DNA from: a virus
Taxonomy: Duplodnaviria; Heunggongvirae; Uroviricota; Caudoviricetes
Virus record (IMG/VR): IMGVR_UViG_3300045988_161152
DNA: 64,000 nt
Reading direction: 5' to 3' (one strand)
Below are positions 17,732 through 59,254 of the stretch, piece by piece (position 1 is the stretch's first letter; each line of letters opens with the position of its first letter). Made by a program: the position numbers and the translations under genes. The notes under the pieces were generated by a model. It had not been told where the DNA came from. It did not search any database and saw nothing but the letters and a program-made list of their open reading frames with translations.

Positions 17732-18238
17732 TTGAGTATTTTCAATAAACACGCACACCAGGAACGTCCGTACATCGTCATAGTAGATATTGATGGGACG
17801 ATATCAGAGGCAACGGAAGACAGGCTGCATTTACTTCCACCACCTGGCAAAGGTGCATTAACAGAGCACTGGAACGAGTTTAACCTTGCCTGTGACACTG
17901 ATGCTCCCATCACTCCAGTTATTGATATGGTGCGCCAGTTGTCCGGCATTTACACCCTCTGGTTTGTAACCGGGCGCTGTGAGATAGCCAGGGATAAAAC
18001 ACGAGCCTGGTTGCGTAAGCACGTAACAAATGGGGCTGAGCCTTTGCTATCTATGCGTCCTGCCACCGATGACAGAAATGACGGTCCAGCAAAGATTGAT
18101 CTCCTTAAGAAAATTGGTCTAAGTAAAATTGCGTTCGCGCTGGAAGATAAGATTGAAGTGGCGCGTGTATTCAGGAGGCACGGCGTGCTTACGTTAATGG
18201 TCAGGGAGTATGAAAACGCGCTTCTCCATCAACAATAA
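17732..18238 (+). CDS. pap: HAD-superfamily phosphatase (class B acid phosphatase-like)
   Basis: 168 aa from a TTG start with GGAGG RBS; HAD motif I VDIDGT; symbol from recalled P1 gene order. Confidence 0.55.
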   Translation: MSIFNKHAHQERPYIVIVDIDGTISEATEDRLHLLPPPGKGALTEHWNEFNLACDTDAPITPVIDMVRQLSGIYTLWFVTGRCEIARDKTRAWLRKHVTNGAEPLLSMRPATDDRNDGPAKIDLLKKIGLSKIAFALEDKIEVARVFRRHGVLTLMVREYENALLHQQ

Positions 18239-18254
18239 TTGCTCTAATAAATAT
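18238..18254. promoter_or_regulatory. C1 operator
   Basis: ATTGCTCTAATAAATAT (16 of 17 consensus positions) directly after the pap stop. Confidence 0.55.
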
Positions 18255-29245: not shown

Positions 29246-30439
29246 GTGACCTGGGACGATCACAAGAAGAATTTTGCTCGCCTGGCGCGAGATGGTGGTT
29301 ACACCATCGCACAGTATGCCGCCGAGTTTAATCTTAACCCTAATACCGCACGTCGTTATCTCCGTGCCTTCAAAGAAGACACCAGGACAGCGGACAGCCG
29401 CAAGCCAAATAAGCCAGTCAGGAAGCCTCTAAAAAGCATGATCATTGATCACGCTAATGATCAACGTGCATGTGATCACATTGTGGCTGAAATGGCTGAA
29501 AAACAAAGAGTTAATGCTGTTGTCAGTGCCGCAGTCGAGAACGCTAAGCGCCAAAATAAGCGCATAAATGATCGTTCTGATGATCATGACGTGATCACCC
29601 GCGCCCACCGTACCTTACGTGATCGCCTGGAACGCGACACCCTGGATGATGATGGTGAACGCTTTGAATTCGAAGCTGGCGATTACCTGATAGATAACGT
29701 TGAAGCGCGGAAGGCCGCGCGCGCTATGTTGCGTCGGTCCGGGGCCGATGTTCTGGAAACCACTCTTCTGGAAAAGTCTCTTTCTCATCTCCTTATGCTG
29801 GAGAACGCCAGGGATACGTGTATTCGCCTGGTGCAGGAAATGCGCGATCAGCAAAAAGACGATGATGAAGGTACTCCGCCTGAATACCGTATCGCGAGCA
29901 TGCTAAACAGCTGTTCCGCGCAGATAAGCAGCCTGATCAACACCATTTACAGCATCCGGAATAACTATCGAAAAGAAAGCCGGGAGGCGGAAAAGCACGC
30001 TTTATCTATGGGGCAAGCTGGCATTGTTAAGCTGGCATACGAACGAAAGCGTGAAAATAACTGGTCAGTGCTGGAAGCGGCTGAATTCATCGAGGCGCAT
30101 GGAGGAAAAGTGCCTCCCCTGATGCTGGAGCAAATCAAAGCCGATCTGCGTGCTCCTAAGACCAATACCGATGATGAGGAAAACCAAACAGCATCTGGCG
30201 CTCCATCACTTGAAGATCTGGATAAAATCGCGCGAGAACGGGCCGCCAGCCGCCGCGCTGATGCCGCATTGTGGATTGAGCATCGTAGAGAAGAAATTGC
30301 CGATATCGTCGATACAGGTGGTTATGGTGATGTCGATGCGGAAGGCATATCAAACGAAGCATGGCTTGAACAGGATCTGGACGAAGACGAGGAGGAAGAC
30401 GAAGAAGTTACCCGCAAACTGTACGGGGATGATGATTAA
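29246..30439 (+). CDS. pacA: Terminase small / pac-recognition subunit PacA
   Basis: 397 aa from a GTG start; contains the pac site; acidic C-terminus. Confidence 0.85.
29439..29630. other. pac packaging site (two clusters of TGATCA/G hexamers)
   Basis: Four TGATCA repeats at 29439-29480 and four TGATC(A/G) repeats at 29568-29625, all with GATC Dam sites. Confidence 0.8.
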
Positions 30440-31923
30440 TGGCCAGAAGTTGCGTAACGGACCCACGTTGGCGCGAGCTTGTGGCGCTATATCGTTATGA
30501 CTGGATTGCGGCCGCTGATGTGTTGTTTGGGAAGACACCAACCTGGCAGCAGGATGAGATCATTGAGTCCACGCAGCAGGACGGCAGTTGGACAAGTGTG
30601 ACCTCCGGCCATGGTACTGGTAAATCGGATATGACGAGTATCATTGCAATACTCTTCATCATGTTTTTCCCCGGCGCTCGCGTCATTCTGGTCGCTAACA
30701 AAAGACAGCAAGTCCTTGATGGTATTTTCAAATACATAAAGAGCAATTGGGCTACTGCTGTTAGCAGATTCCCGTGGTTGTCGAAGTATTTCATTCTTAC
30801 AGAAACGTCTTTTTTTGAGGTGACTGGCAAGGGTGTTTGGACAATATTGATAAAGTCCTGTCGCCCCGGGAATGAGGAGGCGTTGGCTGGTGAACACGCC
30901 GATCATCTCTTGTATATCATCGACGAAGCGTCGGGTGTGAGTGATAAAGCATTCAGTGTGATAACAGGTGCGCTGACCGGTAAGGATAACCGTATTCTGC
31001 TTCTTTCCCAGCCTACGCGACCTTCAGGCTATTTCTACGATTCACACCACAGACTAGCTATTCGCCCGGGAAATCCTGATGGATTGTTTACTGCGATAAT
31101 ACTGAATAGTGAAGAATCTCCGCTTGTAGATGCAAAATTTATACGAGCAAAACTTGCGGAGTATGGCGGTCGTGATAACCCCATGTACATGATCAAAGTA
31201 CGTGGTGAATTTCCCAAATCTCAAGATGGCTTTCTTCTTGGTCGTGATGAGGTTGAGCGGGCGACGCGGCGAAAGGTCAAGATTGCCAAAGGATGGGGCT
31301 GGGTTGCATGTGTTGACGTTGCTGGTGGCACAGGACGAGATAAGTCCGTTATTAATATCATGATGGTGTCCGGCCAGCGAAATAAACGCCGTGTAATCAA
31401 CTATCGTATGCTGGAATACACAGACGTTACAGAAACGCAGTTAGCCGCCAAGATTTTCGCAGAATGTAACCCAGAACGGTTCCCGAACATAACCATAGCT
31501 ATTGATGGCGATGGCTTGGGGAAATCGACGGCTGATCTAATGTACGAACGCTATGGCATTACCGTCCAGCGTATCCGCTGGGGTAAAAAGATGCACAGCC
31601 GTGAAGATAAAAGCCTTTATTTCGATATGCGCGCTTTCGCGAATATTCAGGCGGCAGAAGCTGTAAAATCAGGGCGTATGAGGCTTGATAAGGGGGCTGC
31701 GACTATAGAGGAAGCATCAAAGATACCGGTAGGGATAAATTCCGCAGGTCAATGGAAGGTGATGTCAAAGGAAGATATGAAGAAAAAACTCAACCTGCAC
31801 TCACCGGACCATTGGGATACATATTGTTTCGCTATGTTGGCGAACTATGTTCCCCAGGATGAAGTGCTTAGCGTCGAAGACGAAGCGCAGGTTGATGAAG
31901 CTCTGGCATGGCTTAATGAATAA
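30439..31923 (+). CDS. pacB: Terminase large subunit PacB
   Basis: 494 aa; Walker A GHGTGKS, Walker B IIDEAS; ATG overlaps pacA stop. Confidence 0.85.
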
Positions 31924-33119: not shown

Positions 33120-33358
33120 AATTATGCCTCACTGTATTGACAACACAGAGCCTGAAGCTCTGACCTACTGTTTCACCCATGATCCATGCTGGGGTAATCT
33201 AACAACATTGCGCTGTGTGTAAGATGAGCAATGCATAGCTGTAATGCCGTTGTATAAGGTTTCCCTGTTTGCTCATTTCCTTCTGAGCCGCTCTACAACG
33301 CTGAAGACACATTAAATAGTGAATCCAAAGTCGTATTACGAAACGGCGGCAAAACTAT

Positions 33359-33374
33359 AATTTATTAGAGCAAT
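33359..33374. promoter_or_regulatory. C1 operator
   Basis: AATTTATTAGAGCAAT, perfect reverse complement of ATTGCTCTAATAAATT. Confidence 0.65.
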
Positions 33375-53200: not shown

Positions 53201-53333
53201 AAAGACCTCATAAGCGAATTTTTTACGCTCCAGGACAAACACTCATTCACAGCCAATACCGACTGACTCGATCCCTTTAGAAGGCACAGGATAATGCAAA
53301 TCACTTGTTAGCCACGTTTCAAAGATATACATT

Positions 53334-53350
53334 ATTGCTCTAATTAATTT
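53334..53350. promoter_or_regulatory. C1 operator upstream of ssb
   Basis: ATTGCTCTAATTAATTT (1 mismatch). Confidence 0.55.
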
Positions 53351-53369
53351 ATTTTATTAGGTAAGAAAA

Positions 53370-53858
53370 GTGGCACAACGCGGTGTAAACAAAGTCATCC
53401 TGATTGGTACCCTGGGGCAAGACCCGGAGATCAGGTATATACCAAATGGCGGAGCGGTCGGAAGACTCAGCATCGCAACGAATGAATCATGGCGCGACAA
53501 GCAAACGGGCCAACAGAAAGAGCAAACAGAATGGCATAAAGTAGTTTTGTTCGGAAAACTTGCTGAAATTGCGAGTGAATATTTACGAAAAGGTTCTCAG
53601 GTCTACATCGAAGGGAAACTGAAAACCCGTAAGTGGACAGATGACGCCGGTGTAGAACGTTACACGACGGAAATTATCGTCAGCCAGGGCGGCACCATGC
53701 AAATGATCGGCGCTCGCCGTGACGATTCACAGTCCTCAAATGGCTGGGGGCAATCAAACCAACCTCAAAACCACCAGCAATACAGTGGTGGCGGTAAACC
53801 TCAGAGCAACGCCAATAACGAACCTCCAATGGACTTTGACGACGATATTCCGTTTTGA
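53370..53858 (+). CDS. ssb: Single-stranded DNA-binding protein
   Basis: 162 aa; OB-fold N-terminus, G/Q-rich linker and acidic DFDDDIPF tail. Confidence 0.9.
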
Positions 53859-54055
53859 ATGTGTAAAAAACGACTGAAAGAAAAGCGGTGGTCCAGACGC
53901 CGACAAAAGCACGAACTCGCTCAAAAACGCCAAAGTTGGCAATGGCACGCGCTTTTAACGAATAGAACACCCCGAGATATTGCTTTCGCTGGTGGGAAAA
54001 CATTCCTAACCAACCTGAAGGCGCAATACATCAGTTTTTAAGCAGAGAAAAGACT

Positions 54056-54850
54056 ATGACAGCACAAAATACTAAAACCATTCAATACCGCCTACGTAAT
54101 GGCCAGAGTGTCGAAGTGACCATCAATAACGATGGAGTGCCAGGCGAAAAGGTTTCTATCTCTGATCTGGCTATCGAAAAAACCATCATGTGCCACCTTG
54201 GCTTTACTGAAGAAGTGAGCAAAAAGCATGGTGTAGCTATCTGGCGCACAATGGATACTGGAATGCGCAGATTCATTACTGCTCGTACCCCTGGTATGAC
54301 CATGATGGACCTCATGCAGATTGCGCCGCTGTTTGAGTGTGAACCTCTGGATGTATTCAGTAATCCAGTTATCTGCCAGCAGTTATATGGTGAGATGAAA
54401 CTCGCGGTTACCCCCATCGTGCTGCATGAAGGATCGCTTGCTGGCGTATGGAAAGTAGAGCGAATTTCAAGCTACATGCCCTTCCACGTCCATGTCAACG
54501 GCGTAATCACAGGTGAAAATCAACCTGTTTCAGTTACAAAGTCAGACCTCAAGCGTGCAATTCTTGAAGCAAGTTGTCGAGTTATCGGCCTGGGCAAACA
54601 GTCTTATGTTTGCTTCCCCGCAGGCCCAGAAGGCCAGGCTGAAATACTGGCGATGGATGCCGATCTGCTCTGGCAAATAGAGTTTATGATAGGGAAAAGC
54701 ATCATCCGAGCTGAAGAACTCGATCAGTACATTACCTGCACAATGACGGATGAGGTAAAAAGTGTGGCTATAGCCAAAGCCCGGAACCTGTGTCGTGCTG
54801 CATTAACAGAACTGCGAGAAAACACCACGGAAGAGGTGGAAAGTGATTAA
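54056..54850 (+). CDS. Hypothetical protein, upstream partner of the PacB paralogue
   Basis: 264-aa ORF whose stop overlaps the next start by 8 nt. Confidence 0.55.
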   Translation: MTAQNTKTIQYRLRNGQSVEVTINNDGVPGEKVSISDLAIEKTIMCHLGFTEEVSKKHGVAIWRTMDTGMRRFITARTPGMTMMDLMQIAPLFECEPLDVFSNPVICQQLYGEMKLAVTPIVLHEGSLAGVWKVERISSYMPFHVHVNGVITGENQPVSVTKSDLKRAILEASCRVIGLGKQSYVCFPAGPEGQAEILAMDADLLWQIEFMIGKSIIRAEELDQYITCTMTDEVKSVAIAKARNLCRAALTELRENTTEEVESD

Positions 54851-55937
54851 TCGTATACAGAATGAATCTGCCTGGTTAGCACTGATAGAACAGTATAAAG
54901 ACAATTGGGAACTGGCAGCGAAAGAGTTGCTTGATATTGAGTTAACACCTCATCAAGCAAAAATTATTAACGCGATAAAGAACACCGGAGCCAAAGTCAC
55001 TGCCACCACACCACATGGTATTGGGGAAACCTCTATTGTGGCAGTGATTAGCATCCTGCAAACAATACTGTATTCGTGTTCCCGTACAGTGGTTGTTTCT
55101 CCTGCTATTAACGATAGTCGAAAAACAATAATTGACTATATGTTCCGTTATTGGGAGCGAGTTACCCAAAAACACCCTTTTCTTGGCAATCATTTCAGAA
55201 TGCACCCTGACAAAGGGTTGGTGCATATCAGTGAAACATGGGGATGCGTCTATATAACCTATTGTCTGAATAACGAAGTGTCTCTGGCTGGTTTTACTGG
55301 ACCGCACGATCTTTTCATCGTTATTAACTCGGCGGAAATCAGCGATCGCGCTCATGCAGTGATAACTGGCAATTTAACCAATTATGACTCGCGCCTGCTG
55401 TTGCTGTCGAAACCATCGGAACGCGAGAAAGGGTACTTTTATGATTCGCATCACCGGTTGGCCCATAGTAAAAACAATCCTGCTGGTTTTTTCACGGCGA
55501 TAACTCTAAACACAGAGGATTCGCCTCTCGTTTCTGAAGCATATCTTGAATTCAAAGCCAAAGAGTTTGGTGGGCGCAATAGCGATGAATATCGCCGATT
55601 GATCTTGGGGAAATTTCCCGGGATTCGGGAGTTGATGGAAAAGTCATCTGTTCCCCGTAATATGCACTTCACAATGACTGACGGTAGTAAATGGGTAGTG
55701 CCTACGATCGTGATCGCCAAACACCATGCGAAACATCACGCTCAAAAACACAACTCCAGCACATTAGACTGGCTGAAGGCCTATACAATACCGTTATTCT
55801 CGGCAAACCATAACGCTATAGCTGAATGGGCTAAACAAATCCCCTGGCAGGATGTGGCTGAAGAGGCATTTGTCGAAAAACCTCCGAGAGATTTGCACGA
55901 GCACTGTTGGCTGACATCAGAAAAGAGCTTCTCGTGA
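54843..55937 (+). CDS. Terminase large-subunit (PacB) paralogue with degenerate Walker A/B motifs
   Basis: 364 aa; aligns to PacB N-terminal ATPase half ([21 protein letters not shown]) but has PHGIGETS for GHGTGKS and VINSAE for IIDEAS. Confidence 0.6.
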   Translation: MINRIQNESAWLALIEQYKDNWELAAKELLDIELTPHQAKIINAIKNTGAKVTATTPHGIGETSIVAVISILQTILYSCSRTVVVSPAINDSRKTIIDYMFRYWERVTQKHPFLGNHFRMHPDKGLVHISETWGCVYITYCLNNEVSLAGFTGPHDLFIVINSAEISDRAHAVITGNLTNYDSRLLLLSKPSEREKGYFYDSHHRLAHSKNNPAGFFTAITLNTEDSPLVSEAYLEFKAKEFGGRNSDEYRRLILGKFPGIRELMEKSSVPRNMHFTMTDGSKWVVPTIVIAKHHAKHHAQKHNSSTLDWLKAYTIPLFSANHNAIAEWAKQIPWQDVAEEAFVEKPPRDLHEHCWLTSEKSFS

Positions 55938-55968
55938 GGTAAAAATCCCGCCGATTGGCGGGATTTCT

Positions 55969-56277
55969 TTAATATATGATCTGGTCTATATGATCACCAA
56001 AATCATCGTCGTCGTCCTCATCGCCACCATCTACTGCTGGCCAATCAACAAACCAGCCAGCGTAAAGATACAGCGTTCGGAGAACATCACTTGCGGGAGC
56101 ATCAAGGGTGTTAACGAATCCCATATAGCTATTGGGATTTGCTCCAGCTATGGCTTCAGCGATCATGTCCTCGGTAATGTCACCGGAGATAATGCTTAAA
56201 CGCCCGGAAACTTCTTCATTATCATCAAATTCGATAATGGCATCTCCGCCTAATGGCGCTGCGATTTTAATCTGCAT
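55969..56277 (-). CDS. Small acidic protein downstream of ddrB
   Basis: 102 aa; GGDEDDDDDFGD tract; start overlaps ddrB stop. Confidence 0.45.
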   Translation of the reverse strand: MQIKIAAPLGGDAIIEFDDNEEVSGRLSIISGDITEDMIAEAIAGANPNSYMGFVNTLDAPASDVLRTLYLYAGWFVDWPAVDGGDEDDDDDFGDHIDQIIY

Positions 56278-59254
56278 TATTTAGCTCCTTTGCCACACCT
56301 AATAACAGTTCCAGCAATCCGTCACCATTCATCAGTGATGCGGCAGCGGCCTCTTTGTCATGATACAACTGAAGAGCCATAGAGAATACTTCCGTTGCTG
56401 ACGTTTTGGAAATGGTCGGTGATTTCTGCCGAATTTTCCCGGAGTTACTCACTGAGACTGGCGGGTATACCTTCGCCATATAAATATTACTCAATCGAGA
56501 TCTGAAGCACCATTCAGGCTTGCCACGCCCACCGATATTAACGAAAGATGGCTTATCCCCTTCAACATTGGCCTTCAGGAATGACCGGGCTTTCTCTAAC
56601 AAACCAGGGTTACTGTACTCAAGATGATGACCCAGCTCGTGCCACAGTGCACTTGCATTTTCATCGTTCAAATTGACAGCAACAACACCATTAAGATTTG
56701 CATATGCCCTTCCCTTGTGGTGAACCACCTTTGATAAGGTCGAAATTTTACCGCCGGTCAGGCGATAAATATCAGCAAGTTCCTTGCGCAGGTCTATCCC
56801 ACCATTCTGTCCAGCGCGGGCTTCTTCCACTTCTTCCGTGATAAAAGAGTCGGCCCACTCAAGAGCTTTTTCTTCAGATACGGATGAGTTTGCGATCGCA
56901 CTGTTCATGGCAGATAACACTTTCTCGTGGACCGAACCCATACTTCGCTGATTCATTTGCCAGCGTGTCTGCGGGTTGTATGAGAATCGCTTAAGTAGTT
57001 GGTCAAGCTGCTCAAGTTCTTCTTCACTGACATACTTTTTAGCCTCACCAATAATGCCAGGGAGAATATTGCCGTTAGGATTAAACGCTCGCGAAAGGAA
57101 GAGTTTCAGCGCCCCCATGCCCTCCGATGCTTCAATATCACCAATAACCCGGTTAACAATGGCCGCACTCTTCGGATTAGCATCCGCCAACGCCCTGGCT
57201 ACAATTTGCAGGGACGATACGACCTCACGCTGCATATCAGTCCTGATCTCATCAATAAACTCTGGCGTTATGCCGTGCTCTTTAAGGATATCCCTGCCTT
57301 CCGCCGTTACCCCATCGATATCACCGACATGTTTATTAACCTGACTTTGCAATGCCTTAAATGCCTTCAGAATTCCACGGGCATCATCAGCTTTACTAAC
57401 GGCCTTCCTGAATGCTGGCAAGAAGTCTGAGTTAACCTCATTTTGTTGATCGGCCCACTGAATGGAGGCTTCTTTCATCTCGTCCAGAGTCAGATCACCC
57501 AACGCGGTATGGTCTGTGAATATGAGCGACAACCTCTGAACCATTTCTGCCAATGGTGATGCCGAATGCGCCGCGCTAAGGAATGCTTTCACCCTGGTTG
57601 GGCGAATGGAAAACCAGTCAATAGCTGGTGGCATATCTCCGTTTTTTATCGCCTGCGCTATCTCGTCAAAGCCATCGCGCCCAAGGGAGGATGCGTGATT
57701 TAACAATCCGCGAAGTAACGAATTGCTGATACCGAATAATCGGCACCATTTTTTCACGTCGGCAACAGGCATTCGAACAAAATGCGCAAGCACTTGTACA
57801 AGCTGTTCATCCTGGGGATCTGTGCGGGAAAGCAGCCTGATCAGATGAATAATGTCTTTGATGCCGGATGCCCGATGTAATAGCAAACTGGTATACGGAG
57901 CAACACCGTTGTAACTACCGCCGGAAACGGACTCGAAAAGACCGCCGGATATCCCTTGCATGCCTTCGTATTCCAGTTCCTGAGACACCTGGCGAAGGAT
58001 ATCCTGTAACGACACATCGCCGCCGCCAAACATATCCCCGAGCGCCTGGCCCTGGTGCTGTAACTCATCATTGATACGTTGCGCCATCAACTTAAAGGCG
58101 GTGGCCATACGCTTCGCGCTACGGTTATTCGCGACGATGAACAACGCGAGTGCTTTCACTTCCGGGGCCGTTTCGCTGAACATATCCCCCTGAGCAATAA
58201 CATCGGTAATATGCTGGCCTGACTCCTTCGATTGCCTTACCAGGTCTACCGCATCTTTCAATGCCGCCAGCGCCTTTTTATCGAGGCTATCCGCTGTCTC
58301 AATGCCATCAACAATAGTTGTCACAGCCTGCTTGTGCGCTTCTCCTGATAAAGCCTGCATCTGGACAAAATCATTGGCTGCCGCATTAAGCGCCGTCAGA
58401 ACATTACGCATATCCGGATCAGGTTCTTCTGCAACCATCCTTACCAGGCGCGCATCCTTATATGCCTTGGCAAAGATCGCGTTTTGTATACGGTCAACAA
58501 GTTGCCGTGTTGGTCGCCCATCTTCAGTTACAAGGCCAGCCGCCTGTGTGGCACCAACTTGCGTCATGAATCCGCGAATAAACGCGTCATTACTGCGGCT
58601 AAGCAGATCTCCGCTTTCTGACGGGTTAAACAACGCCATCATCGCCGGTGTTATGCTGTCGGCATCAACAAAAGCCTTTTCACTGGCTGCCATTTCCTGG
58701 AGATCAGAAATATTTGAGTCCTTGGCAAACTGAACACGGTCAACCTTCGTTAACCGGCGGCGCACCAGTACCGGAGCCGTCATTGATTCAACCTTTTCAG
58801 GCCGTATGCCGAATTCGGTCGCATGTTCAATCAGGTACTCCCGATACCGATCCGCATTACCGTCCTGATAGGCTTTGATGATCCCCATGGTCCGTCCATT
58901 ACCTGACTCAACGGCATTGTCCTCACCAATTATCGGCGCGCCATGGCTGGATAAACCGGAATCAGTAAGCTGAGCAGGCCGCAAATCTTTGGATATCTGG
59001 TTAACCTGAAGAAGGCTGGATGCGCGGGTCCGGTCGCGCGGCTGAAGTTCCTGGGGATAGTCAGGATTAATTTTCCCATCCAGAGTATTGGATACCAAAA
59101 GAGCTGAGGCATCGACGATATCAAACGCTGTTTTTACCTCGTCTCCCTTCGCTGTCACCACATACGAAACCCGCCCATAATCGGGCAGGTTCTTTAGCAG
59201 CTCGATCAGCGTTTCTATGCTGGTGGCCATTACCACCTGATCGCTTAAGCTCAT
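56267..59254 (-). CDS. ddrB: Dar-operon protein DdrB
   Basis: 995-aa ORF downstream of ddrA/darA. Confidence 0.75.
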   Translation of the reverse strand: MSLSDQVVMATSIETLIELLKNLPDYGRVSYVVTAKGDEVKTAFDIVDASALLVSNTLDGKINPDYPQELQPRDRTRASSLLQVNQISKDLRPAQLTDSGLSSHGAPIIGEDNAVESGNGRTMGIIKAYQDGNADRYREYLIEHATEFGIRPEKVESMTAPVLVRRRLTKVDRVQFAKDSNISDLQEMAASEKAFVDADSITPAMMALFNPSESGDLLSRSNDAFIRGFMTQVGATQAAGLVTEDGRPTRQLVDRIQNAIFAKAYKDARLVRMVAEEPDPDMRNVLTALNAAANDFVQMQALSGEAHKQAVTTIVDGIETADSLDKKALAALKDAVDLVRQSKESGQHITDVIAQGDMFSETAPEVKALALFIVANNRSAKRMATAFKLMAQRINDELQHQGQALGDMFGGGDVSLQDILRQVSQELEYEGMQGISGGLFESVSGGSYNGVAPYTSLLLHRASGIKDIIHLIRLLSRTDPQDEQLVQVLAHFVRMPVADVKKWCRLFGISNSLLRGLLNHASSLGRDGFDEIAQAIKNGDMPPAIDWFSIRPTRVKAFLSAAHSASPLAEMVQRLSLIFTDHTALGDLTLDEMKEASIQWADQQNEVNSDFLPAFRKAVSKADDARGILKAFKALQSQVNKHVGDIDGVTAEGRDILKEHGITPEFIDEIRTDMQREVVSSLQIVARALADANPKSAAIVNRVIGDIEASEGMGALKLFLSRAFNPNGNILPGIIGEAKKYVSEEELEQLDQLLKRFSYNPQTRWQMNQRSMGSVHEKVLSAMNSAIANSSVSEEKALEWADSFITEEVEEARAGQNGGIDLRKELADIYRLTGGKISTLSKVVHHKGRAYANLNGVVAVNLNDENASALWHELGHHLEYSNPGLLEKARSFLKANVEGDKPSFVNIGGRGKPEWCFRSRLSNIYMAKVYPPVSVSNSGKIRQKSPTISKTSATEVFSMALQLYHDKEAAAASLMNGDGLLELLLGVAKELNNAD

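Follow-up and report, generated by a model that had tools for sequence, protein, structure and literature searches.

The stretch of viral DNA analysed here (IMG/VR record IMGVR_UViG_3300045988_161152, class Caudoviricetes; 64,000 nucleotides, in the following called the window) encodes two proteins related to the large terminase subunit (TerL) of bacteriophage P1. One is the active enzyme, PacB. The other, a protein of 364 amino acids (aa) encoded between ssb/isaA and hxr and 24 kb away from pacA-pacB, is, judged from its sequence, a pseudo-enzyme that arose as an ancient paralogue of the ATPase domain found in large terminases of the PacB type. With neither an ATPase site nor a nuclease, the protein probably acts by binding. 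We propose, with a probability of roughly 30%, that it mimics the ATPase domain of PacB and acts in counter-defence or in conflicts between genetic elements.

Loss of the catalytic motifs and retention of the fold

A BLASTP alignment of the 364-aa protein with the PacB of the window gave 34% identity over 284 residues (E = 2e-50) and stopped near residue 285, so that no nuclease half is present. The preliminary description of this locus had proposed the relationship from shared sequence blocks, among them FTAI.LN.E.SPLV and a block starting with LLLS.P. Both fall within the aligned region and the similarity is statistically significant. The loss of the Walker A lysine and of Walker B, claimed there as well, is confirmed. 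The Walker A motif SGHGTGKS of PacB lies opposite TPHGIGETS (residues 56–64), and the Walker B motif LYIIDEAS lies opposite LFIVINSAE (residues 157–165). The lysine of the GK[ST] signature is invariant in 33 active relatives and is gone in the 364-aa protein as well as across the clade of dead paralogues described below. In Walker B of the active relatives the aspartate is conserved in 94% and the glutamate in 100% of the sequences; the 364-aa protein contains neither. The residues Q91, H153 and T193 of PacB, which are invariant or nearly so in the 33 active relatives, are also lost.

The positions that determine the fold, in contrast to these catalytic residues, were retained (Q38, G59, G61, W134, G151, G197, F199, S227-P228, Y250 and F258 in PacB numbering). 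Such a combination of lost catalytic residues and kept fold residues is the signature of a fold-retaining pseudo-enzyme. The 364-aa protein matches phrog_5902, a family of PacB-like terminases, with E = 5e-184. Its structural model is compact and confident, with a predicted local distance difference test (pLDDT) score of 88.9, and the predicted fold of the N-terminal domain is that of PacB. Pfam and NCBIfam contain no match for the protein, and PacB itself reaches only sub-threshold AAA matches in these databases. A sequence-profile search against the PDB gave only a marginal terminase match, located in the nuclease region. The isoelectric point (pI) of the protein is 7.1 and its net charge is approximately zero; this analysis of charge and pI gave neither a DNA-mimic nor a DNA-binding signal for the 364-aa protein or for its upstream partner IsaA.

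We compared the protein with five features of large terminase subunits. The N-terminal domain has a TerL-type ASCE P-loop ATPase fold, whereas the Walker A lysine, Walker B, the nuclease domain and a location in the packaging module are all missing. Because four of the five features are absent, the annotation as "terminase large subunit", as found in MH422554, is misleading and unsuitable. The other public annotation of the gene is "hypothetical protein".

Distribution, selection and phylogeny

The gene is found in 120 plasmids of the PLSDB database, at full length in 119 of them and with identities of 92.6–100%. The carriers are mostly non-mobilizable Escherichia plasmids of about 90–100 kb, together with some from Salmonella, Klebsiella and Shigella. 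The same database holds 594 records with pacB and 336 with isaA. The 364-aa gene is accessory: roughly 20% of the E. coli-type P1-like plasmids carry it, and the reference P1 and P7 do not.

The Walker substitutions are genuine, as had been assumed in the preliminary description, and are not due to sequencing errors. The gene recurs, identical or nearly so, in the 120 plasmids, the 90%-identity cluster of the protein has 851 members, and each of five independent copies that we translated is without the Walker motifs. Pairwise ratios of nonsynonymous to synonymous substitution rates (dN/dS, method of Nei and Gojobori, five alleles) range from 0.11 to 0.40 for the 364-aa gene and from 0.11 to 0.13 for isaA, which indicates that the 364-aa gene is kept under purifying selection. 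A sequencing error or a pseudogene is ruled out by the intact plasmid copies (119/120), by dN/dS values below 1 and by the existence of distant homologues.

A word-indexed search for homologues found a relative with 53% identity. As this search gave only three proteins and missed PacB, an exhaustive HMMER search covering 1.8 billion representatives was needed. It yielded full-length relatives at 48% identity and others, either shorter (approximately 250–265 aa) or 444 aa long, at 29–42%. The two-domain architecture is retained among the relatives at 48–53% identity, and homologues over the whole range of 29–53% retain the fold-determining residues. Both Walker motifs are present in 118 out of 141 representatives of at least 200 aa, while 14 have neither. 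All 14 Walker-less representatives (230–444 aa) lack a nuclease domain, and 13 of them form one clade nested among PacB-like terminases in a neighbour-joining tree (bootstrap 78/100).

The fourteenth, a Walker-less and nuclease-less TerL ATPase homologue of 268 aa (P0040; L031, 644–1450), falls into a different terminase clade of the same tree, so that dead terminase paralogues seem to have originated convergently more than once. The contigs of P0009, P0040 and P0042 are too short to be informative about gene context. In addition, the Walker A loop of some PacB-related terminases (P0032, P0039, P0053, P0093, P0101, P0104 and P0137) contains long, intein-like insertions (SGHGC...HNTGKS), and one BFVD entry describes a terminase with an "intein C-terminal splicing region".

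The C-terminal domain

In the preliminary description the nuclease half was thought to be replaced by a histidine-rich tail. The nuclease is indeed missing, and the sequence HHAKHHAQKH is present within residues 293–304; the supposed tail, however, is part of a folded and conserved domain. Residues 270 to 364, approximately, are predicted to form a β-hairpin followed by helices, with pLDDT values of 84–90 for residues 261–330 and of about 80 for residues 331–350; the last 11 residues or so are disordered. An interpretation of the tail as a metal-binding or low-complexity feature was rejected, since other members of the domain family do not conserve the histidines of HHAKHHAQKH.

The domain matches the C-terminus of phrog_17928 (E = 1.7e-13) and a local hidden Markov model (E = 4e-47). 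A profile of five distant members retrieved at least 1409 protein clusters (90% identity) with E-values down to 1e-42. Among 120 members listed, nearly all are stand-alone proteins of 95–115 aa, and none has a Pfam domain. The family, to which the proteins P0172–P0290 belong, shares the motif MPDGS.W.VP..VIA...A..YA...T.PLF....I.DWA.NNM.W.DV...GW.NGEK. The five-member alignment contains 21 invariant columns, and the domain of the 364-aa protein matches the family profile over its full length, the conserved W/P/F/W positions included.

Members of this family are typically located in early or nin-type regions of phages and prophages. Stand-alone members lie in the early regions of lambdoid prophages between the replication genes and ninB, and one follows a ban-like helicase gene in the P1-like Cronobacter phage JK004. 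In Xanthomonas phage Tenjo the domain forms the C-terminus of a 471-aa protein encoded beside recombinase, exonuclease and single-stranded DNA-binding protein (SSB) genes. The stand-alone early-region proteins and our C-terminal domain belong to one family, which is encoded by separate genes in nearly all of the 120 members listed and is here fused to a dead TerL ATPase domain. A search with hidden Markov models for tail-like open reading frames (ORFs) 3' of those clade members that consist of the ATPase domain only found none.

The upstream partner IsaA

The 264-aa protein encoded directly upstream is IsaA of P1 (97% identity) and matches phrog_2326, a family of unknown function, with E = 3e-149. 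It has no match in Pfam, NCBIfam, PADLOC or the PDB profiles, and no similarity to PacA by BLASTP. Its AlphaFold2 model has low confidence (pLDDT 45, predicted template modelling score 0.30). By CRISPR interference, IsaA is non-essential in P1 (PMC10695390).

Homologues of IsaA at 22–50% identity are common in diverse P1-like viral contigs from IMG/VR (L063–L122), where they are usually found about 5 kb downstream of pacB, beyond c1 and cre. A group of 14 contigs with isaA has no dead paralogue within 6.5 kb. Conversely, wherever a two-domain dead paralogue occurs in a viral-contig locus that could be assessed (32/32), and likewise in L007, isaA is located directly upstream and overlaps it. 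The 32 coupled loci span three sub-lineages (approximately 100%, 52% and 48% identity); a 33rd two-domain locus (L053) was left out, because its contig starts too near the gene to judge.

The clade members without the C-terminal domain have other neighbours. The gene of one, of 263 aa, overlaps that of a Ref-type, RecA-dependent nuclease by 4 nucleotides (nt; pair at L010, 7336–8792, also in L011–L013), with an IsaA-like gene 3 kb away. This suggests that Ref and the 263-aa paralogue are a different coupled pair in another P1-like lineage. Another member follows a 102-aa ORF, and a further one follows a radical-SAM gene. The radical-SAM gene directly upstream of a dead-terminase homologue in a phage-like contig (L008, 7027–7983) is weakly similar to prokaryotic viperins (PADLOC pVip, E = 3e-11).

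The pair of isaA and the 364-aa gene had been likened to pacA-pacB. We do not uphold this comparison. IsaA is unlike PacA, it is widespread without the dead paralogue (336 against 120 plasmids), and other clade members are coupled to other partners; the resemblance in gene arrangement is therefore superficial.

Some observations concern the IsaA family itself. In the reference P1, isaA is annotated as a gene of 320 aa that starts just after ssb (L001, 2089–3051). In the window, in-frame stop codons (~53957–53966) within the stretch 53859–54055 limit isaA to 264 aa, and distant homologues all start at an equivalent methionine (MTAQNTK/MENTK). The annotation in P1 is thus probably over-extended at the N-terminus. 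The ssb–isaA spacer (53859–54055) is read as the N-terminus of a Tad2-like ORF in SJ46. The designation of IsaA as "IS1-associated" hides a widespread and conserved family.

The ssb–hxr locus

The region 53300–56400 of the window is 100% identical to MH422554 and MH445380, both records of natural-isolate "P1", and approximately 97% identical to the reference P1 where the sequences can be aligned. The gene order is lyz (minus strand), ssb, isaA, the 364-aa ORF, hxr (minus strand) and ddrB (minus strand). Both ORFs, the GTG start and the overlap of 8 nt (GTGATTAA) are located exactly as first described, and a Shine-Dalgarno sequence, AGAGGTG, lies just 5' of the GTG. The coordinates of all features are listed in Table 1.

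Table 1. Positions of the genes, domains and sites discussed in the text, in window coordinates.
Feature	Position	Strand	Remarks
ssb (P1 single-stranded DNA-binding protein)	53370..53858	+	First gene of the inferred operon; ORF, annotated as ssb in P1 and relatives
isaA, 264 aa, ATG start	54056..54850	+	Upstream, translationally coupled partner; orphan family of P1-like elements
364-aa gene, GTG start	54843..55937	+	Catalytically dead paralogue of the PacB (TerL) ATPase domain with a fused ~100-aa domain
TerL ATPase-like domain, residues 1–262 of the 364-aa protein	54843..55628	+	
Degenerate Walker A, TPHGIGETS (residues 56–64)	55008..55034	+	Lysine gone, one residue inserted relative to PacB SGHGTGKS
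Degenerate Walker B, DLFIVINSAEI	55308..55340	+	Asp-Glu pair gone relative to PacB
C-terminal ~100-aa domain of the 364-aa protein	55650..55934	+	In place of the nuclease domain; includes the HHAKHHAQKH helix
Intrinsic-terminator-like hairpin, 10-bp stem	55943..55966	.	Between the convergent 364-aa gene and hxr
pacB, active large terminase, 494 aa	30439..31923	+	Carries SGHGTGKS (Walker A), IIDEAS (Walker B) and a nuclease half; comparison paralogue
pacA, small terminase/pac-recognition subunit	29246..30439	+	phrog_1711 terminase; unrelated to IsaA
C1 repressor operator Ossb/Op21	53334..53350	+	Upstream of ssb; ATTGCTCTAATTAATTT

Compared to the reference P1 (NC_005856), the homology runs through isaA, ends exactly at its stop codon and resumes at the 3' end of hxr. 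In between, the reference P1 contains approximately 90 bp of unrelated sequence, IS1 and the unrelated isaB. The preliminary description had placed an IS1 copy in this interval of canonical P1 and considered the locus of the window as its intact form. IS1 is indeed present in P1, but the 364-aa gene is wholly absent there and not disrupted. An interruption of the gene by IS1 was rejected, as the alignment shows complete replacement from the isaA stop codon onwards.

Published comparisons of P1-like phage-plasmids list the ssb–hxr interval as variable, under the names "region 2" (PMC9603915) and "RD-2" (PMC6906374). Alternative cargo at this position comprises a Tad2-like gene and isaA in SJ46, the same two genes with a 95-aa ORF in Ro157c2, a Tad2-like gene with isaA and the dead paralogue in an E. 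albertii plasmid, and nmpC in P7. In a divergent P1-like contig the trio of Tad2-like gene, IsaA (47%) and dead paralogue (48%) is found elsewhere in the genome, between cre and phd/doc. Tad2-like genes (DUF2829, anti-Thoeris) lie immediately 5' of isaA in four loci (L004, 1012–1713; L007, 6515–7201; L024, 1089–1934; L025, 1257–1934); the window itself has no Tad2-like gene at the isaA site. On its other side the 364-aa gene adjoins the Dar/Ddr anti-restriction operon. Dar/Ddr and Tad2 are recognised anti-defence systems of P1/D6 phage-plasmids.

In P1 the neighbouring hxr (55969–56277, minus strand) bears the annotation "possible repressor; homolog of Xre". Its 102-aa product is very acidic (pI 4.05, 23 D/E against 3 K/R, with a DEDDDDD run) and has no Pfam helix-turn-helix match even at E ≤ 1. 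Hxr looks more like an acidic protein of the DNA-mimic type, heading the ddrB-ddrA-darA operon, than like a repressor.

Inferred expression

The operator Ossb has one mismatch to the C1 operator consensus and is identical to the annotated Ossb of P1. From ssb to hxr we found no terminator-like site on the plus strand apart from the strong hairpin between the 364-aa gene and hxr. With a conserved operator and no earlier terminator, ssb, isaA and the 364-aa gene probably form one C1-repressed early transcription unit. In a lysogen this unit would stay off; in the lytic cycle it would be switched on early, ahead of the late-expressed PacB. A simple sigma-70 scan found no promoter on the plus strand; as the scan also missed the annotated Pssb promoters, it is uninformative about an internal promoter in front of isaA.

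Over the whole window, 14 sites resemble the C1 operator with at most three mismatches (e.g. 2414–2430, 18238–18254, 33358–33374 and 53334–53350), where 0.24 are expected by chance. This fits the known scatter of the C1 regulon over the P1 genome. A weak match of this kind falls within pacB (31135–31151, minus strand).

Proposed function and alternatives

Based on these results we tentatively propose the following mechanism. The 364-aa protein would be co-transcribed with ssb and made early in lytic growth, ahead of PacB. It would then occupy a factor that recognises the ATPase domain of PacB, the likeliest candidates being terminase targeters of the host or of a rival element, such as Avs1-3, Upx-type sensors or TerI-like inhibitors. 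In this way the genuine PacB would be shielded or the reaction to it dampened, and IsaA as well as the C-terminal domain could supply additional binding surfaces. The genomic context that we cite for such a mimic consists of the anti-defence neighbours, the patchy and hotspot-confined distribution, and the probable early expression. The ATPase domain of TerL is what Avs2, Avs3 and Upx sense, and for Upx this domain alone is enough; the TerL-ATPase-like paralogue vs.8 of phage T4 engages EcAvs2 (bioRxiv 10.64898/2026.04.30.721860). A more specific version, in which the pseudo-terminase is an early-made decoy that binds Avs1-3/Upx-type receptors or terminase-directed inhibitors without activating them, with IsaA and the ~100-aa domain as co-factors, is unlikely as it stands.

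Several points weigh against a PacB mimic of this kind. Sensors of the Avs type are activated by binding of their target, and a mimic might trigger them unless oligomerisation is blocked. EcAvs2 contacts the ATP bound to the terminase (bioRxiv 10.64898/2026.04.30.721860); the 364-aa protein probably cannot hold ATP, so that EcAvs2 may not recognise it. The confinement of the dead clade to P1-like elements suits a role at the pac-cleaving terminase (pacase) of P1 at least as well as a general sensor decoy. Conclusions drawn from neighbours in a hotspot carry little weight, and IsaA, Hxr and the 364-aa protein are without a match at E ≤ 0.01 among the defence-system profiles of PADLOC. Elsewhere in the clade the coupling is to genes of DNA metabolism, for example Ref. 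Finally, dN/dS values of about 0.3 for the 364-aa gene point to an only moderate constraint.

The first alternative, possible in our view and likewise tentative, is a modulator of packaging. Here the dead domain would bind PacA in competition with PacB, or co-assemble into the pentameric motor or pacase. As a result, pac cutting and headful packaging would be delayed or tuned, or a P1-like rival, whether co-resident or superinfecting, would have its pacase poisoned in a dominant-negative manner. The phylogeny is in line with this, since the closest active relatives are PacB-type terminases of the same lineage, with the dead clade nested among them and restricted to PacAB-encoding P1-like elements. 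The 364-aa protein shares its N-terminal helical region (DPRW.EL...Y..NW..AA..LFG) as well as many core positions with the active PacB-like proteins, and in other phages it is the N-terminus of TerL that contacts the small terminase subunit (TerS), as in gpA and gpNu1 of lambda. Interference of a prophage with a terminase also has a precedent in TERi/TerI of Listeria (bioRxiv 10.1101/2025.02.27.640495). However, the gene is dispensable: reference P1, P7 and about 80% of the P1-like plasmids package normally without it. Furthermore, the 364-aa gene appears to be early and C1-controlled while PacAB is late, and if it is silent in lysogens it would be unable to exclude superinfecting phages. The identity to its own PacB is only 34%, and the locus lies away from the packaging module.

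It is doubtful whether the protein serves as an accessory factor of DNA replication or recombination, that is, as a non-catalytic DNA- or protein-binding adaptor that works with SSB, Ref, RecA or the replicative helicase early in the lytic cycle. The ssb operon, the coupling of a clade member to Ref and the genomic contexts of the C-terminal domain family would all be consistent with such an adaptor. The association is weak, though, because in temperate phages the replication genes of the early region stand among numerous accessory genes that have nothing to do with them. The neutral charge of the protein provides no sign of a basic surface, and IsaA is non-essential in P1.

Very improbable is a functionless relic, in which case a terminase gene, once duplicated or captured, would be decaying and its remnant merely carried along in a recombination hotspot. 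It is true that the protein has none of the catalytic motifs and no nuclease half, the distribution is patchy and dN/dS exceeds that of isaA, but the frame is intact in 119 of the 120 plasmids and the dN/dS values stay well below 1. In addition, the conserved fold residues and two-domain architecture, the confident model and the coupling to isaA in every assessable two-domain viral-contig locus argue against decay.

A second holoenzyme of the PacA/PacB type formed by IsaA and the 364-aa protein, as gene order and translational coupling might suggest, can practically be dismissed, as it is contradicted by the sequence evidence on both proteins: IsaA resembles neither PacA nor any small-terminase family and is widespread without the dead paralogue, the supposed large subunit has no ATPase motifs and no nuclease, and dead paralogues exist with other upstream partners.

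Comparison with known systems

The likeness between the 364-aa protein and PacB of P1 is one of homology over the whole N-terminal ATPase domain, with a common PHROG (5902), predicted fold and phage lineage. The 364-aa protein differs in the absence of Walker A, Walker B and the nuclease and in the presence of an unrelated ~100-aa domain. Moreover, pacB belongs to the lpa-pacA-pacB module, whereas the 364-aa gene is located in an early accessory hotspot and is dispensable. Binding without catalysis, as we propose for the 364-aa protein, is also the mode of action of Ppi from SaPIs and Rpp from PICIs, which bind terminase subunits of the helper phage. These two proteins, however, come from satellites, act on TerS and have no TerL ancestry, while the 364-aa gene is part of the phage's own genome.

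The nearest described analogue is vs.8 of phage T4, the only described precedent of a TerL-ATPase paralogue that we found in a literature search. It likewise duplicates, without the nuclease, the ATPase domain of the TerL that its phage encodes (gp17 in T4), and its gene lies outside the packaging module (bioRxiv 10.64898/2026.04.30.721860). In contrast to the 364-aa protein, which lost both Walker motifs and gained a domain, vs.8 has both motifs intact; together with EcAvs2 it is toxic and thus acts as a trigger. A tblastn search of 50,697 phage records with the 364-aa protein gave no T4-like record at E ≤ 1e-3, and the two paralogues may have arisen independently.

The TERi system of Listeria comK prophages (TerI with anti-TerI1/2) is, like the 364-aa gene, an accessory module of temperate phages, and it is directed at the terminase complex (bioRxiv 10.1101/2025.02.27.640495). 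TerI is described there as a small protein and can be likened to the 364-aa protein by description only. TERi is expressed in lysogeny to block invaders, whereas the 364-aa gene is apparently repressed by C1 in this state.

Our literature search found no paper that describes the 364-aa gene, its clade or the family of its C-terminal domain. What is new here is a TerL-ATPase paralogue that is predicted to be both catalytically dead and fused to another domain.

Significance

The large terminase is among the most conserved phage proteins and is the main molecular pattern for several bacterial immune receptors. Against this background the 364-aa protein represents a rare viral pseudo-enzyme, a dead copy of the terminase ATPase domain that one phage lineage has kept for a long time and always in accessory or anti-defence regions. 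Two uncharacterised families are defined by this work, IsaA and the ~100-aa early-region domain. Both could be curated, and the latter, very widespread and without a Pfam model, is a candidate for a new curated family.

The observation itself is solid; the function is inferred, and the link to terminase-sensing immunity or to the control of P1 packaging is testable. If the protein acts as a decoy, it would be the first example of a phage evading immunity by imitating the very protein that is sensed, and target mimicry would join the known means of escape from pattern-recognition immunity. A role as modulator of the pacase would make it a natural tool, dominant-negative in its action, with which to study P1 packaging and generalised transduction. 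It would also bear on the competition among P1-like phage-plasmids, which spread resistance genes in Enterobacteriaceae.

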